Source of the DNA: Oscillospiraceae bacterium
GTDB taxonomy: Bacteria > Bacillota > Clostridia > Oscillospirales > Acutalibacteraceae
Assembly: GCA_902792985.1 (NCBI GenBank)
Contig: CADBBT010000004.1
Location: 55,235 to 119,234, forward strand
Direction: 5' to 3'
DNA: 64,000 bases
Of the stretch, positions 3,835-60,999 are shown one piece after another (position 1 is the first letter of the stretch; every line of letters begins with the position of its first letter). Made by a program: the position numbers and the translations under genes. The notes below the pieces were generated by a model. It saw nothing but the letters and a program-made list of their open reading frames with translations. It was not told the origin of the DNA and ran no database searches.

Positions 3835-4154
3835 GCTTTTCAAGTCCTTTCCTTCGGCACTTTGTTGCGCCCGTTTCCGATTTATTATACACCAGAGCGC
3901 AGACAATGTCAATCTTGCGCGCCGAAAAAGCTGAAAGAGTCGCCCGGAAAGAGCGGGGTGCAGCGCAGAAATGAGAATTTTTTTCACTTACGGAATCACT
4001 TTTGCTTGACATCTATTGGTTTTTGATTTATAATAACCTGTATAACAACAGGTGTTGTTATTTCTGCTGTTTCATTCGAGTAACACTACTGTAATTCTTT
4101 TGATGGTTTTTGGAACTGAAAAGCTTATTTCAAAAAGAAGGAGGTGCTGCTACT

Positions 4155-13318: not shown

Positions 13319-13795
13319 ATGGAACGATTGAAAAAGCTCTTTCTCGGCTTCTTTTATGCCTTTCGGGGCGTCGGCGCGTCCATCCGGACGGAGCGCAATT
13401 TGCGCATCCATCTGACCTGCCTTGCGTATATGCTCGGCTTTCTGCTTTGCACCGACTGGTTCGTGCTTTCGCGTGCGGACTGGGCGCTGTTGATGCTGGC
13501 GGCGGGGTCCGTGCTTGCGGCGGAGCTGTTCAACACAGCGCTTGAGCACACGGTCGACCTTGCGACGAAAGAATATGCCGAGCACGCAAAAAAAGCAAAA
13601 GACGCCGCTGCGGGCGCCGTGCTGGTGTGCGCAATTTTTGCGGTGATCGTCGGGCTATGCATCCTGTTGCAGCCCGAAGCGTTCCGGCAGATGTTCGCAT
13701 ATTTCAAAACCCACCTCGGTTCGCTGGCGCTGTTTGTGCTGAGCCTCGTTCCGGCGAATCTGTTCATCTTCCTTCCTTGGCAGAAGAAGGAGTGA
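13319..13795 (+). CDS. dgkA: diacylglycerol/undecaprenol kinase
   Basis: FRGV..RTERN.RIH, ELFNTALE and AKDAAAGAVL motifs with three TM segments. Confidence 0.88.
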   Translation: MERLKKLFLGFFYAFRGVGASIRTERNLRIHLTCLAYMLGFLLCTDWFVLSRADWALLMLAAGSVLAAELFNTALEHTVDLATKEYAEHAKKAKDAAAGAVLVCAIFAVIVGLCILLQPEAFRQMFAYFKTHLGSLALFVLSLVPANLFIFLPWQKKE

Positions 13796-13834
13796 CAGGG
13801 GACAGGTGGCAGGGAACAGGGGACAGTAGGGGCG
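13794..13834 (+). repeat. G-rich heptamer tandem repeat (GACAGGG-like, about 5 units) in the dgkA 3' UTR
   Basis: GACAGGG GACAGGT GGCAGGG AACAGGG GACAGTA GGGG begins at the dgkA stop codon. Confidence 0.7.
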
Positions 13835-13847
13835 GCCATTGTCGCAG

Positions 13848-13874
13848 AAAAAAAGCTCTGGTGGAGCTTTTTTT
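13848..13874 (+). terminator. intrinsic terminator of the phoH-ybeY-dgkA operon
   Basis: AAAAAAAGCTC TGGTG GAGCTTTTTTT. Confidence 0.75.
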
Positions 13875-13942
13875 CGTTGCGATTCCATTTTTATCGCGGC
13901 AGCGACAAAGCACTTTAAAGACGTCCGGTTTTGTTGAATTGC

Positions 13943-13971
13943 TTGATTTTTCAGGAGAAATATGGTAGAGT
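13943..13971 (+). promoter_or_regulatory. promoter of the small-peptide mRNA
   Basis: TTGATT, 17 nt (containing TATGG), then TAGAGT. Near-identical to the promoters at 14284 and 59547 (minus). Confidence 0.55.
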
Positions 13972-14056
13972 AAAAACCGCAGAGAGGTCTGCAAGAAACG
14001 GTAGGCGGTTCGCTCTCCCAAACACGGAAGGAAACTTCCGCCCGGGAGGTGGTAGC

Positions 14057-14125
14057 ATGGAACTGGCATTTGTTGTGCTGATTCTGATCGCAGCCACGGG
14101 TTACATCGTAGCTATTAAGAAGTAA
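14057..14125 (+). CDS. 22-aa hydrophobic peptide, candidate type I toxin
   Basis: GGGAGGTGG SD lies 5 nt before the ATG. Product MELAFVVLILIAATGYIVAIKK is a single TM-like helix with a KK tail. The gene is convergent with an antisense RNA gene that overlaps its 3' UTR. Confidence 0.45.
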   Translation: MELAFVVLILIAATGYIVAIKK

Positions 14126-14127
14126 TT

Positions 14128-14220
14128 CAGAAAAGCGATAACCGCCCCAGACTCGACAAAGGGACGGTTATCATTAACCAATTCTTTAGAGAGCGACCGC
14201 TGAACCGCGACCTCTCTGTA
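14128..14220 (-). ncRNA. candidate antisense (antitoxin-like) RNA, about 90 nt
   Basis: It starts about 7 nt downstream of a perfect TTGACA-17-TATAAT promoter. It ends at the hairpin GATAACCGTCCC/GGGGCGGTTATC followed by GCTTTTCT on the minus strand, and is fully complementary to the peptide mRNA 3' UTR. Confidence 0.5.
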
Positions 14221-14225
14221 TCTTT

Positions 14226-14254
14226 ATTATAGCCGTGCGCAGCGCTTTTGTCAA
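14226..14254 (-). promoter_or_regulatory. perfect consensus sigma-A promoter driving the antisense RNA
   Basis: Minus strand TTGACA AAAGCGCTGCGCACGGC TATAAT with an exact 17-nt spacer. Confidence 0.7.
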
Positions 14255-14283
14255 GCATTGCGGCGGTTTATTTTTTTATAGGG

Positions 14284-14312
14284 TTGATTTTTCGGGGAAG
14301 ATGTGGTAGAGT
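14284..14312 (+). promoter_or_regulatory. promoter of the hairpin leader and Sel1-like gene
   Basis: TTGATT TTTCGGGGAAGATGTGG TAGAGT. Confidence 0.55.
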
Positions 14313-14318
14313 AAAGGT

Positions 14319-14514
14319 GCCAAACAAAAACCAAGCAAGCGACATGTGTTGCAGGCTTCACATACATTAAATGAAACCGAAAGGTGCACTTTATAAAAAG
14401 GTGCATCCTGTCCTTCCTTTCGAGTTTCATTTATTGGAGCCGTTGGTTGGTTTTTGTTTGGCGACAAGATAGGATTGCACTTTTTTATGCGTCCATCTTG
14501 GGCGCATTTTTTTA
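14319..14514 (+). promoter_or_regulatory. structured 5' leader: 144-nt hairpin plus intrinsic terminator (unassigned class)
   Basis: GCCAAACAAAAACCAAGCAA (14319-14338) pairs with TTGGTTGGTTTTTGTTTGGC (14443-14462) at 19 of 20 positions. An inner stem pairs ATGAAACCGAAAGG with CCTTTCGAGTTTCAT. ATGCGTCC ATCTT GGGCGCAT plus T7 (14487-14514) lies immediately before the SD AAGGTGG. Confidence 0.5.
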
Positions 14515-14535
14515 TTATATAAGGTGGACAATAAA

Positions 14536-15201
14536 ATGCTGGAAGAGTTGATTCAGGAATACCTGCATAAGCCTGTGGAAAACCTGTTTGACATGCTGGA
14601 GGAAAGAAAATTTTCGGAGAAAAGTATTCTACCGCTTTTGCTGCTGGGACGTGCCTATCAGCTCGGCGTTTCCGGTGCACCGAAAGATGATCTGTCTGCA
14701 TATTTTTTCTTCCAAGCGGCAAGTGAATGGGGATGTGAAGAAGCGGATGACCTGATAGATTTGACGGTTTTTAACGGGTTGCACATAGAAACTCTTTTTG
14801 CGCGGCTGGAAGAGGAACCGCACACGTTTTTAAAGGGTTGTCTGTTGTTTGAAATCGGGTATATGTACCAGTTCACGAAGCTGAATGAGCGAATGACGCC
14901 AAAAATGGATCAGGAGGAACGAAACCTCATTGCCTTGAAGTATTATAAGCAAGCGGCAGCGTATGGAAACCTGGATGGAATGATTCAAATGAATGCGCTG
15001 CTGATGATGCAGGAGTTTCAAAACCAACCGGACCCGTCACAGCGCGTCTCCTTGAGCTTGATGAATCTTTGTAATCTTTGCTGTCGCAGTCACTATCCAC
15101 CTGTGCAGATGTTTTTGGACGAACTGATTTCCAAGCATGTGATTATATTTGACGGCGTGAAAGAATCACAGGATTTGGTGAATTTGTTGATTGGAGAATG
15201 A
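14536..15201 (+). CDS. hypothetical protein with Sel1/TPR-like helical repeats
   Basis: 221 aa. AAGGTGG SD lies 8 nt before the ATG at 14536. Segments LGRAYQLGVSGAPKDDLSAYFFFQAASEWG and ALKYYKQAAAYGNLDGMIQMNALL look like Sel1 repeats. The gene is AT-richer than its flanks. Confidence 0.5.
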   Translation: MLEELIQEYLHKPVENLFDMLEERKFSEKSILPLLLLGRAYQLGVSGAPKDDLSAYFFFQAASEWGCEEADDLIDLTVFNGLHIETLFARLEEEPHTFLKGCLLFEIGYMYQFTKLNERMTPKMDQEERNLIALKYYKQAAAYGNLDGMIQMNALLMMQEFQNQPDPSQRVSLSLMNLCNLCCRSHYPPVQMFLDELISKHVIIFDGVKESQDLVNLLIGE

Positions 15202-18664: not shown

Positions 18665-18768
18665 AGATATTGACAGAAGAAGAAAAAACCCATATAATGT
18701 TCTTATGGAACCTTATGTGGGTTTTGTTGTTTTGAAAACCTCTCATCTGAAAGCGGAGGGAAGAAACG

Positions 18769-23393: not shown

Positions 23394-23422
23394 ATTATAT
23401 ATAGCGCATTTCTTTTTGTCAA
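23394..23422 (-). promoter_or_regulatory. promoter of the thiN-nitroreductase operon
   Basis: Minus strand TTGACA, 17 nt, then TATAAT. Confidence 0.7.
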
Positions 23423-29017: not shown

Positions 29018-29046
29018 TTGACATCGCGATTGCGATGCGGTATAAT
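29018..29046 (+). promoter_or_regulatory. rplJL promoter
   Basis: TTGACA TCGCGATTGCGATGCGG TATAAT with an exact 17-nt spacer. Confidence 0.75.
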
Positions 29047-56133: not shown

Positions 56134-56162
56134 TTGACAAACGCCGTGCAACGTGCTATAAT
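56134..56162 (+). promoter_or_regulatory. ilvBN promoter
   Basis: TTGACA AACGCCGTGCAACGTGC TATAAT, an exact consensus. Confidence 0.78.
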
Positions 56163-56169
56163 CCAACCA

Positions 56170-56428
56170 ACATGAAAACGCGAGGAAGCGGAGGAGTACG
56201 TTCGGACCCTTTTCTCAGAGAGATGCCGGTCGCTGCAAGGCATTGAAAAGGCTGAACCGAAGTCGCCGCAGAGCGGTCGCAGGGAACAGATGTAGCTGCG
56301 AACGGGCGCTCCCGTTAAAGAGCAAGGCGTGTCAGCGCCGGAGTGCGGCCTTTGGTCGAAGAAGAGTGGTACCGCGGAAGAACAACGGCTCTTTCGTCTC
56401 TTTGAGAGACGGGAGCCTTTTTGTTTTT
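56170..56428 (+). promoter_or_regulatory. T-box leader (branched-chain amino acid; specifier probably GUC/Val, with CUG/Leu not excluded)
   Basis: AGTA and AGAGAG elements, distal loop GGTCGCTGCAA, T-box AGTGGTACCGCGG, and terminator GGCTCTTTCGTCTC TTTG AGAGACGGGAGCC plus a T-run. GAA-GUC-G (56259-56265) lies opposite the AGUA element. Confidence 0.82.
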
Positions 56429-60970: not shown

Positions 60971-60999
60971 ATTATACCTTTCCGCGCGGCGGTTGTCAA
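60971..60999 (-). promoter_or_regulatory. GH28 promoter
   Basis: Minus strand TTGACA ACCGCCGCGCGGAAAGG TATAAT, an exact consensus. Confidence 0.75.

Follow-up and report, generated by a model that had tools for sequence, protein, structure and literature searches.

What is encoded in the intergenic space that follows dgkA in an uncultured rumen Clostridia genome? The window analysed here (64,000 nt of contig CADBBT010000004.1 from an Oscillospiraceae bacterium) contains a 729-nt gap between dgkA (13319-13795, plus strand) and the gene for a 225-aa protein (14524-15201, plus strand), and within this gap lies an intergenic cassette of ~340 bp. An earlier note, made from the letters of the window, had proposed that the cassette encodes a hydrophobic peptide on one strand and a convergent, 3'-overlapping antisense RNA on the other, with the architecture of a type I toxin-antitoxin pair. 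That architecture is backed by tandem paralogues, by selection on the coding sequence and by compensatory changes in RNA hairpins. On this sequence evidence the cassette is probably a type I toxin-antitoxin module, located on the chromosome and built on the 3'-overlap plan of Gram-positive systems, with two predicted transcripts and a predicted toxin. Among type I systems it is best read as a new, lineage-restricted candidate family, separate from those that have been named.

The closest named genomes are the rumen metagenome-assembled genomes "Clostridia bacterium RGIG3704" and "Ruminococcaceae bacterium RUG11928". In RGIG3704, whose DgkA is 90% identical, two whole cassettes stand in tandem 3' of dgkA (locus L009, 4632-4975 and 4977-5317); copy 2 (type A) is 98% identical to the window cassette and copy 1 (type B) 85% identical. 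Differences between the two types are concentrated in the open reading frame (ORF), the two hairpins that precede and follow it (the GAAA and post-stop hairpins) and the mRNA terminator. Three segments, namely 13978-14016, the Shine-Dalgarno (SD) region and 14189-14275 (which includes the antisense promoter), are identical everywhere except for one C>U within a putative anti-SD element of L009 copy 2, even though the ORFs have diverged at synonymous sites. Judged from these alignments, the cores of the untranslated regions (UTRs) are either under very strong constraint or homogenised between copies. Tandem repetition and hydrophobicity are criteria that have been used for the discovery of novel toxin-antitoxin families of type I (PMC8594479).

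The plus-strand promoter, the GAAA-tetraloop hairpin, the SD sequence and the 22-codon ORF are all present in the sequence as the earlier note had read them (Table 1). The ORF encodes a single hydrophobic helix with a KK tail (MELAFVVLILIAATGYIVAIKK; 22 aa, grand average of hydropathy 1.83), its type B paralogue encodes MEYMAYVALILIAATGYIVAIKK, and a 555-nt contig supplies a third peptide variant that begins MELALVV. Between the window and type B ORFs 13 of the 66 aligned nucleotides differ, the one-codon indel excluded. In the ORF frame these differences amount to 8 synonymous versus 3 non-synonymous codon changes across 20 comparable codons, whereas no such excess of synonymous changes over the rest appears in any of the five remaining frames (0-1 in four frames; 5 versus 4 in minus frame 1). 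When the same substitutions were placed randomly, residues were equally well preserved in 0.1% of trials (P ~0.001). By this coding-type divergence the 22-codon ORF is a real gene under purifying selection as a protein, in keeping with the proposal of a hydrophobic peptide gene. Membrane-acting type I toxins are commonly shorter than 60 aa, with a transmembrane helix and C-terminal cationic residues (PMC8309996), and the peptide has the small size and the hydrophobicity of that class and comes from a selected ORF. One strain contig (L007 1271-1285, at about window position 14050) carries a 5-nt GGTAG duplication that lengthens the SD-ATG spacing from 7 to 12 nt, which may represent an allele with weakened translation or, alternatively, a mistake in assembly.

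Facing the peptide gene, on the minus strand, is a TTGACA-17-TATAAT promoter that matches the consensus at 12/12 positions and is the only promoter-like site reported by a scan of 13700-14600. The window holds 8 perfect TTGACA-N17-TATAAT promoters, where shuffled sequences lead one to expect 0.00. Two of them directly precede Rfam-verified leaders on the right strand (an L10 leader at 29043 and a T-box at 56174), and most of the remaining ones face an ORF within 7-300 nt. In this genome, then, a perfect pair of boxes is the mark of a real and strong promoter, and the promoter that had been singled out opposite the ORF belongs to a demonstrably functional class. No minus-strand gene lies downstream of 14254-14226; as far as the sequence tells, this promoter would drive nothing but an antisense RNA, with a predicted start at A14219. 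An excess of antitoxin over toxin mRNA is the rule in type I systems (PMC5848175). The other seven perfect promoters lie at 3884-3912(-), 4006-4034(+), 18670-18698(+), 23394-23422(-), 29018-29046(+), 56134-56162(+) and 60971-60999(-), and the use of exact-consensus promoters is unusually high in this 64 kb.

The predicted antisense RNA folds at -36.9 kcal/mol and would end at ~14128, 3-6 nt short of the peptide stop codon (14123-14125), in agreement with the claim of a hairpin just past the stop. On the minus strand the post-stop hairpin forms 12 pairs (one of them G.U; -23.1 kcal/mol) and is followed by GCUUUUCUG, whereas on the plus strand it contains a C.A mismatch, reaches -16.0 kcal/mol and has no U tail. 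In the paralogue the two outer pairs of the stem are changed on both sides (U-A to C-G and G-C to A-U), the stem energy is -23 to -24 kcal/mol, and the loop is again 12 nt long and of unrelated sequence. The GAAA hairpin of the 5' UTR shows a compensatory G-C to A-U change in the paralogue. Stems were compared by folding each copy, since MAFFT aligns the post-stop hairpins of the paralogues wrongly along their 3' arm. Of the three double compensatory changes, the GAAA hairpin has one and the post-stop hairpin two; on comparative grounds, both hairpins are real RNA structures. The minus-strand promoter and the hairpin with its U-rich tail (end ~14128) are conserved with compensatory changes, and the antisense transcript that they would bound is a prediction.

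The mRNA promoter has a TG at 13963-13964 within its spacer, which makes an extended -10 element (TGgTAGAGT), and every copy of the module retains it, though the spacer and the -35 box vary; the mRNA is predicted to start near 13977-13979. At the other end, the antisense -35 box sits within the mRNA terminator hairpin, and in the paralogue a C>T converts a C.A mismatch of this hairpin to U-A, giving -21.8 kcal/mol. The region as a whole folds better than shuffled sequence (z-score -5.5 on the plus and -6.3 on the minus strand; 0/200 shuffles fold as well).

Long-range pairing dominates the predicted mRNA fold. Imperfect 30-bp inverted repeats enclose a 170-bp core, and in the mRNA they would pair the 5' leader with the 3' UTR as a clamp made of three blocks: CAGAGAGGUC/GACCUCUCUG, GCGGUUC/GAACCGC and GCUCUC/GAGAGC. 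The earlier note had pointed to this complementarity; segments 13980-13989 and 14209-14218 are complementary at 10/10 positions, and all three blocks are in the minimum free energy (MFE) fold of the full-length mRNA (13978-14275; -116.8 kcal/mol), in which the probability of being unpaired, P(unpaired), is 0.00-0.08 for the clamp arms. The clamp appears in both the MFE and the centroid structures. Its 5' arm is the same in all copies but for L009 copy 2, where a single C>T leaves a wobble pair. The complement of its 3' arm is the 5' end of the antisense RNA, which begins ACAGAGAGGUC-GCGGUUC-AGCGGUC-GCUCUC, that is, as the mRNA leader without its 15-nt bulge. Being a near-copy of the leader, the antisense 5' end would be a rival of the leader for one and the same 3' arm, and the competition that had been suggested between them agrees with folding and cofolding predictions.

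The fold models also point to a link between the clamp and translation. The mRNA has predicted elements that would occlude the SD in cis (a CUCCC/GGGAG helix, the 5'-3' clamp and the terminator), and SD/anti-SD elements, terminator stem-loops and 5'-3' interactions are standard determinants of type I toxin mRNAs (PMC8594479). In constrained folds, P(unpaired) of the GGAGG core of the SD was 0.40 in the clamped mRNA versus 0.00-0.03 when the mRNA was cut at 14130 or 14176, to mimic a nascent transcript, or when 14128-14219 was blocked. L009 copy 1 (type B) showed the same closure of the SD (0.46 versus 0.00). Cofolding with the 92-nt antisense RNA gave a complete duplex with the mRNA 3' UTR (ddG -103.6 kcal/mol) together with the CUCCC/GGGAG helix.

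These predictions can be assembled into a mechanism. The moderate promoter TTGATT-17-TGgTAGAGT would give a ~300-nt mRNA for a 22-residue single-helix membrane peptide, and the perfect promoter on the opposite strand a ~90-nt antisense RNA fully complementary to the 3' UTR from just past the stop codon to 14219. On the nascent mRNA, the anti-SD CUCCC (14015-14019) would hold the SD at GGGAG and keep translation off. Once the 3' arm (14189-14218) emerges, it would clamp the 5' leader and sequester GCUCUC, leaving the SD weakly paired, and the product would be a stable, end-protected and partly translatable mRNA. The antisense RNA would compete for the 3' arm, with contact probably first made either between the 12-nt loops, which are complementary, or in the single-stranded spacer. 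Its binding would displace the leader, return the anti-SD to the SD and turn translation off, and the ~90-bp perfect duplex would be a substrate for RNase III, with decay of the mRNA. This leader mimicry with an anti-SD switch, in which the clamp activates and the antisense RNA silences from 170 nt downstream of the start codon, is a tentative model drawn from the folds. That such mimicry would reverse the logic of hok and AapA1, in a new family confined to uncultured rumen Clostridia, is put forward with the same reserve.

Several observations weigh against this account, or against parts of it. The claim that the post-stop hairpin is a terminator on the minus strand only holds for the window copy (-23.1 versus -16.0 kcal/mol) and fails for the L009 paralogue, whose hairpin has no strand asymmetry and folds equally on both strands (-24.5 versus -23.4 kcal/mol). 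The tail of the minus-strand terminator, GCUUUUCUG, is weak and its loop of 12 nt is long, and a consensus terminator scan did not list the minus-strand hairpin. Covariation in the 5'/3' pairing, for which the earlier note had looked to relatives, was not found, the clamp arms being invariant in all copies; their identity could come partly from gene conversion between tandem copies. The comparative sample consists of two closely related rumen lineages and, in effect, two paralogue types with minor variants, and a peptide of 22 aa could be a harmless small membrane protein. The weakest step is the direction in which the switch works: no predicted state leaves the SD free of substantial pairing, covariation is absent from the clamp, and the effect is missing in one copy. 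In L009 copy 2 the anti-SD C>U (CUUCC) abolishes the predicted closure of the SD on 3' blocking (0.20 versus 0.23), and even in the clamped form the SD is still mostly paired, with ORF codons 12-15 (mean P(unpaired) 0.23 over 14044-14052), so that the direction of the switch is uncertain.

The last two observations also speak for a classical type I module in which the clamped mRNA is an inert storage form, the role it has in hok and AapA1, and in which the antisense RNA acts by RNase III decay only, the mode of txpA/RatA and bsrE/SR5, with neither anti-SD switch nor mimicry. The documented norm is indeed for 5'-3' interactions to silence primary transcripts (PMC8594479; PMC13000454). Unlike in hok and aapA1, though, the 3' arm leaves the SD itself alone here and pairs with the anti-SD and with leader sequence upstream of the SD; its removal is predicted to close the SD, not to open it; and since the antisense RNA targets the clamp arm, its binding must rearrange the leader. 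We regard the storage form as a rather doubtful alternative. It is a variant of the toxin-antitoxin reading, and its likelihood overlaps with the confidence given to that reading as a whole, within which the leader-mimicry switch is slightly favoured over a hok-like storage clamp with RNase III decay.

Among the fetched loci the cassette was seen solely right after dgkA, in the species of the window and in the RGIG3704 lineage and its strains. In relatives whose DgkA is 80-89% identical, the region downstream of dgkA is short or different and the module is missing; the genes found at this site in module-less relatives encode a TIR-domain protein, a Big_3 protein, an ABC-F protein, a GFO/IDH/MocA-family oxidoreductase and an unannotated 246-aa protein. 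This distribution bears on the question of toxicity. The coding signal and the RNA architecture are silent on it, and the peptide matches no toxin family; the cassette might encode a small membrane protein that is antisense-controlled but not toxic, for instance an accessory or regulatory subunit comparable to the modulators of transporters or sensor kinases, whose level the RNA features tune. Most of the probability outside the toxin-antitoxin reading falls here, yet we consider it an unlikely explanation: tandem diverged paralogues, patchy presence and a place bordering a hypervariable spot are what one expects of toxin-antitoxin modules and not of housekeeping subunits, an SD occluded in every predicted state and an antisense promoter of maximal strength are also typical of such modules, and no conserved partner gene was found beside the cassette.

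Could the ORF be fortuitous, and the product a structured non-coding RNA? The minus strand does fold slightly better (z-score -6.3 versus -5.5) and carries the perfect promoter, from which a ~245-nt small RNA could run to a distal hairpin with UUUUU (13994-13977). The substitutions between paralogues, however, respect the reading frame of the plus strand, the SD is perfect and perfectly spaced in an invariant manner, a stronger terminator stands proximally at 14172-14137, and no Rfam family matches, all of which makes this very improbable. In the toxin-antitoxin reading the 13994-13977 hairpin may possibly be a stop for antisense read-through, and the dgkA terminator (~13849-13875) would, from its sequence, halt any further read-through.

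The cassette also appears to vary in copy number. A 45-nt direct repeat of promoter sequence brackets it in the window (13930-13974 and 14271-14315; 76% identical), and the tandem duplication unit in L009, of 345 bp, includes both promoters outside the inverted repeats and is attributed to unequal crossing-over between these promoter repeats. In one scaffold the module is interrupted by an assembly gap, written as a stretch of N (L033 1301-1401), and many metagenome contigs break at or inside the module, or at or just 3' of dgkA, as expected for a repeated or variable region. Direct repeats, tandem duplication, the N run and the contig ends together suggest copy-number variation. Reading the imperfect 30-bp inverted repeats around the 170-bp core as a DNA-level feature (mobile-element terminal repeats, or paired operators just past both transcription starts) would suit the patchy presence and variable copy number, but is scarcely credible when no other copy exists in the 64-kb window or in the fetched loci away from dgkA, the 345-bp unit fits unequal crossing-over and not transposition, and no transposase or regulator gene adjoins the module. 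A miniature inverted-repeat transposable element was likewise rejected, there being no dispersed copies.

Searches for relatives returned no named family, as the earlier note had anticipated. The module matched no Rfam family at gathering score, the antitoxin RNA families Sok, RatA and SR4-type included, and at E values up to 10 the sole antitoxin match was OrzO-P (21.7 bits; gathering score 60), which fell on the dgkA terminator (13848-13912), outside the module. Both peptide variants matched no family in Pfam, NCBIfam or PADLOC at E values up to 10, a search of low power for 22 residues; toxin families such as Fst, Hok, Ldr, Ibs, TisB and TxpA/holin-like are among those that gave no match. 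No relative was found in phage and plasmid collections with blastn and tblastn, in IMG/VR with a degenerate peptide pattern and an SD-ATG pattern, or in JGI metagenomes with peptide-based and promoter-based scans. Two IMG/VR matches to a pattern of the 3' arm lay inside unrelated GC-rich sequence and were rejected as chance. An upstream-extended 64-aa version of the ORF, searched against 5.8 billion and 1.8 billion proteins, recovered only one near-identical 64-aa call, on the 555-nt contig. Transfer-messenger RNA, 6S RNA and signal recognition particle RNA were rejected for the lack of an Rfam match and for the coding signal, and a leader-peptide attenuator for the downstream gene was rejected as the mRNA has its own terminator and a separate promoter follows.

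Table 1. Features of the cassette in window coordinates; transcripts and RNA structures are predicted.
Feature	Position	Strand	Details
mRNA promoter	13943-13971	+	-35 TTGATT 13943-13948, 17-nt spacer, -10 TAGAGT 13966-13971
Predicted peptide (putative toxin) mRNA	~13978-14278	+	~300 nt; bounded by promoter and plus-strand terminator
Clamp 5' arm	13980-14017	+	CAGAGAGGTC, 15-nt bulge, GCGGTTC, GCTCTC
Anti-SD CUCCC	14015-14019	+	overlaps clamp GCUCUC; complementary to SD GGGAG
GAAA-tetraloop hairpin CGGAAG/GAAA/CTTCCG	14025-14040	+	5' UTR, -9.1 kcal/mol
Shine-Dalgarno GGGAGGTGG	14044-14052	+	7 nt upstream of ATG 14057; invariant across copies
Peptide ORF	ATG 14057 to TAA 14123-14125	+	22 codons and stop, encodes MELAFVVLILIAATGYIVAIKK
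Predicted antisense RNA	14128-14219	-	~90 nt (92 nt in cofold); leader-like 5' 31 nt, spacer, terminator hairpin, GCUUUUCUG
Post-stop hairpin	14137-14148 / 14161-14172	both	12-bp stem, 12-nt loop; antisense terminator, loop-bearing hairpin in mRNA 3' UTR
Clamp 3' arm	14189-14218	+	GAGAGC, GACCGCT, GAACCGC, GACCTCTCTG; 100% identical in all copies
Antisense (putative antitoxin) promoter TTGACA-17-TATAAT	14254-14226	-	12/12 consensus match; identical in all copies
mRNA intrinsic terminator	14231-14279	+	hairpin 14231-14268 then TTTATTTTTTT, -17.8 kcal/mol
Weak second minus-strand hairpin and UUUUU	13994-13977	-	-6.8 kcal/mol; optional part

The gene order around the cassette is phoH-ybeY-dgkA ... 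rpsO-pnp, and cattle and sheep rumen metagenomes yield identical or near-identical contigs; the 225-aa protein to the right has no family match. Directly 3' of the dgkA stop codon is a G-rich short repeat (ACAGGGA/ACAGGTG units; 13796-13830) whose length and sequence vary by strain (compare L033 1064-1120). It is followed at 13849-13875 by a symmetric A7-stem-T7 hairpin, AAAAAAAGCTCTGGTGGAGCTTTTTTT, which resembles a bidirectional terminator and draws weak Rfam matches (OrzO-P, mir-4659).

On the 3' side the module is adjoined by a second RNA gene (14283-14515). Its promoter (14283-14311), TTGATT-17-TGgTAGAGT, is a near-copy of the toxin promoter, and its body is a 146-nt near-perfect hairpin (14319-14462) followed by a clean terminator (14487-14507 and T7). 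This rod-like RNA folds with a z-score of -8.3, has no Rfam match even at E values up to 10 and is not recognisable as 6S RNA. It is kept in RGIG3704 at 94% identity, with one double compensatory change in its stem (GGCTTCA/TGGAGCC to GGCTTCG/CGAAGCC), and a SHOCT-domain gene lies 3' of it there. In other strains of the window species (L034 2027-2926; L035 1078-1658) the promoter 14283-14311 precedes, instead of the rod RNA, different genes that start with a signal-peptide-like N-terminus, although chimeric assembly is a possible cause. Different genes behind one promoter place the module at the fixed edge of a strain-variable locus. In the RUG11928 lineage, which has no module, a 799-aa protein with a TIR_2 domain fills the site after dgkA (L027 3128-5483). 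The TIR_2 domain recurs in anti-phage defence proteins, and its occurrence at this site would fit a variable island. The position of the module at such an edge suggests a stabilising or policing role there.

New type I families turn up regularly, and the distribution of this one is narrow; what is unusual is a putative 22-aa toxin with possible leader mimicry. If the toxin-antitoxin reading is true, the family would add one of the shortest toxins. If the folding predictions hold, a circularising 5'-3' pairing would turn translation on and the antitoxin would be a decoy copy of the leader, which would be a new regulatory logic, and the cassette would provide a compact, reusable 340-bp RNA switch with two promoters.

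Among the closest known systems are bsrG/SR4, bsrE/SR5, txpA/RatA and yonT/SR6 of Bacillus subtilis, which are Gram-positive convergent pairs with a small hydrophobic toxin. In these, an antisense RNA of ~100 nt overlaps the toxin mRNA at its 3' end and RNase III cleaves the duplex, as is proposed here. SR4 also alters the structure around the distant bsrG ribosome binding site and blocks translation (PMC5848175), a two-part action analogous to the one proposed for this module. There is no peptide or RNA sequence similarity to the Bacillus systems, and the peptide is shorter (22 aa versus 38 aa in BsrG and 58 aa in YonT). Whereas the antisense RNAs of TxpA, Bsr and YonT overlap the toxin ORF (PMC8594479), the overlap here, barring read-through of the antisense RNA, is confined to the 3' UTR. 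The module further differs in its long 5'-3' clamp, in an antisense 5' end that copies the leader and in having no recognisable prophage around it.

Fst/RNAII (par of pAD1) and SprA1/SprA1as are likewise convergent pairs of Firmicutes in which the overlap excludes the ORF (PMC8594479). They share with the module a terminator hairpin between the genes and repeated elements at the two 5' ends. In par, direct repeats that are read in opposite directions make the two RNA 5' regions complementary; here the repeats are inverted, and the 5' ends are alike instead. Functional pairing lies outside the overlap in Fst/RNAII and SprA1/SprA1as (PMC8594479), whereas here it is the overlap itself, and in place of the shared bidirectional terminator of par the mRNA ends at its own terminator (14231-14279). 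The Fst-family model gave no match in the Pfam search of the peptide at E values up to 10.

The ibs loci of E. coli are multicopy, some of them adjacent, and variable regions give antitoxin specificity. Their toxins are very short and hydrophobic (IbsC, 19 aa), with no C-terminal cationic tail in IbsC (PMC8309996), unlike the KK-tailed peptide. Sib also differs in covering the whole ibs ORF (PMC8594479), and these Gram-negative systems have no homology to the module.

A long-distance 5'-3' interaction in the toxin mRNA is shared with hok/Sok of plasmid R1 and aapA1/IsoA1 of Helicobacter pylori, Gram-negative families without homology to the module. In hok and aapA1 a 5'-3' lock is combined with an SD/anti-SD element that blocks co-transcriptional translation (PMC8594479; PMC13000454); the clamp silences, 3' trimming activates and the 5' region is what the antisense RNA binds. 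In the module, by contrast, the antisense RNA would bind the 3' arm, whose deletion should, by prediction, close the SD, which sets the module apart from the hok type. An activating long-range contact does have a precedent in timP of Enterobacteria, whose antitoxin TimR destabilises the active conformation of the toxin mRNA (PMC13000454). The timP switch lies within the 5' UTR (a pseudoknot and a long-range contact), TimR is not a 3'-overlapping antisense RNA, and there is no homology to the module. If the present model is true, the module would extend the timP finding that toxin mRNAs switch by structure alone.

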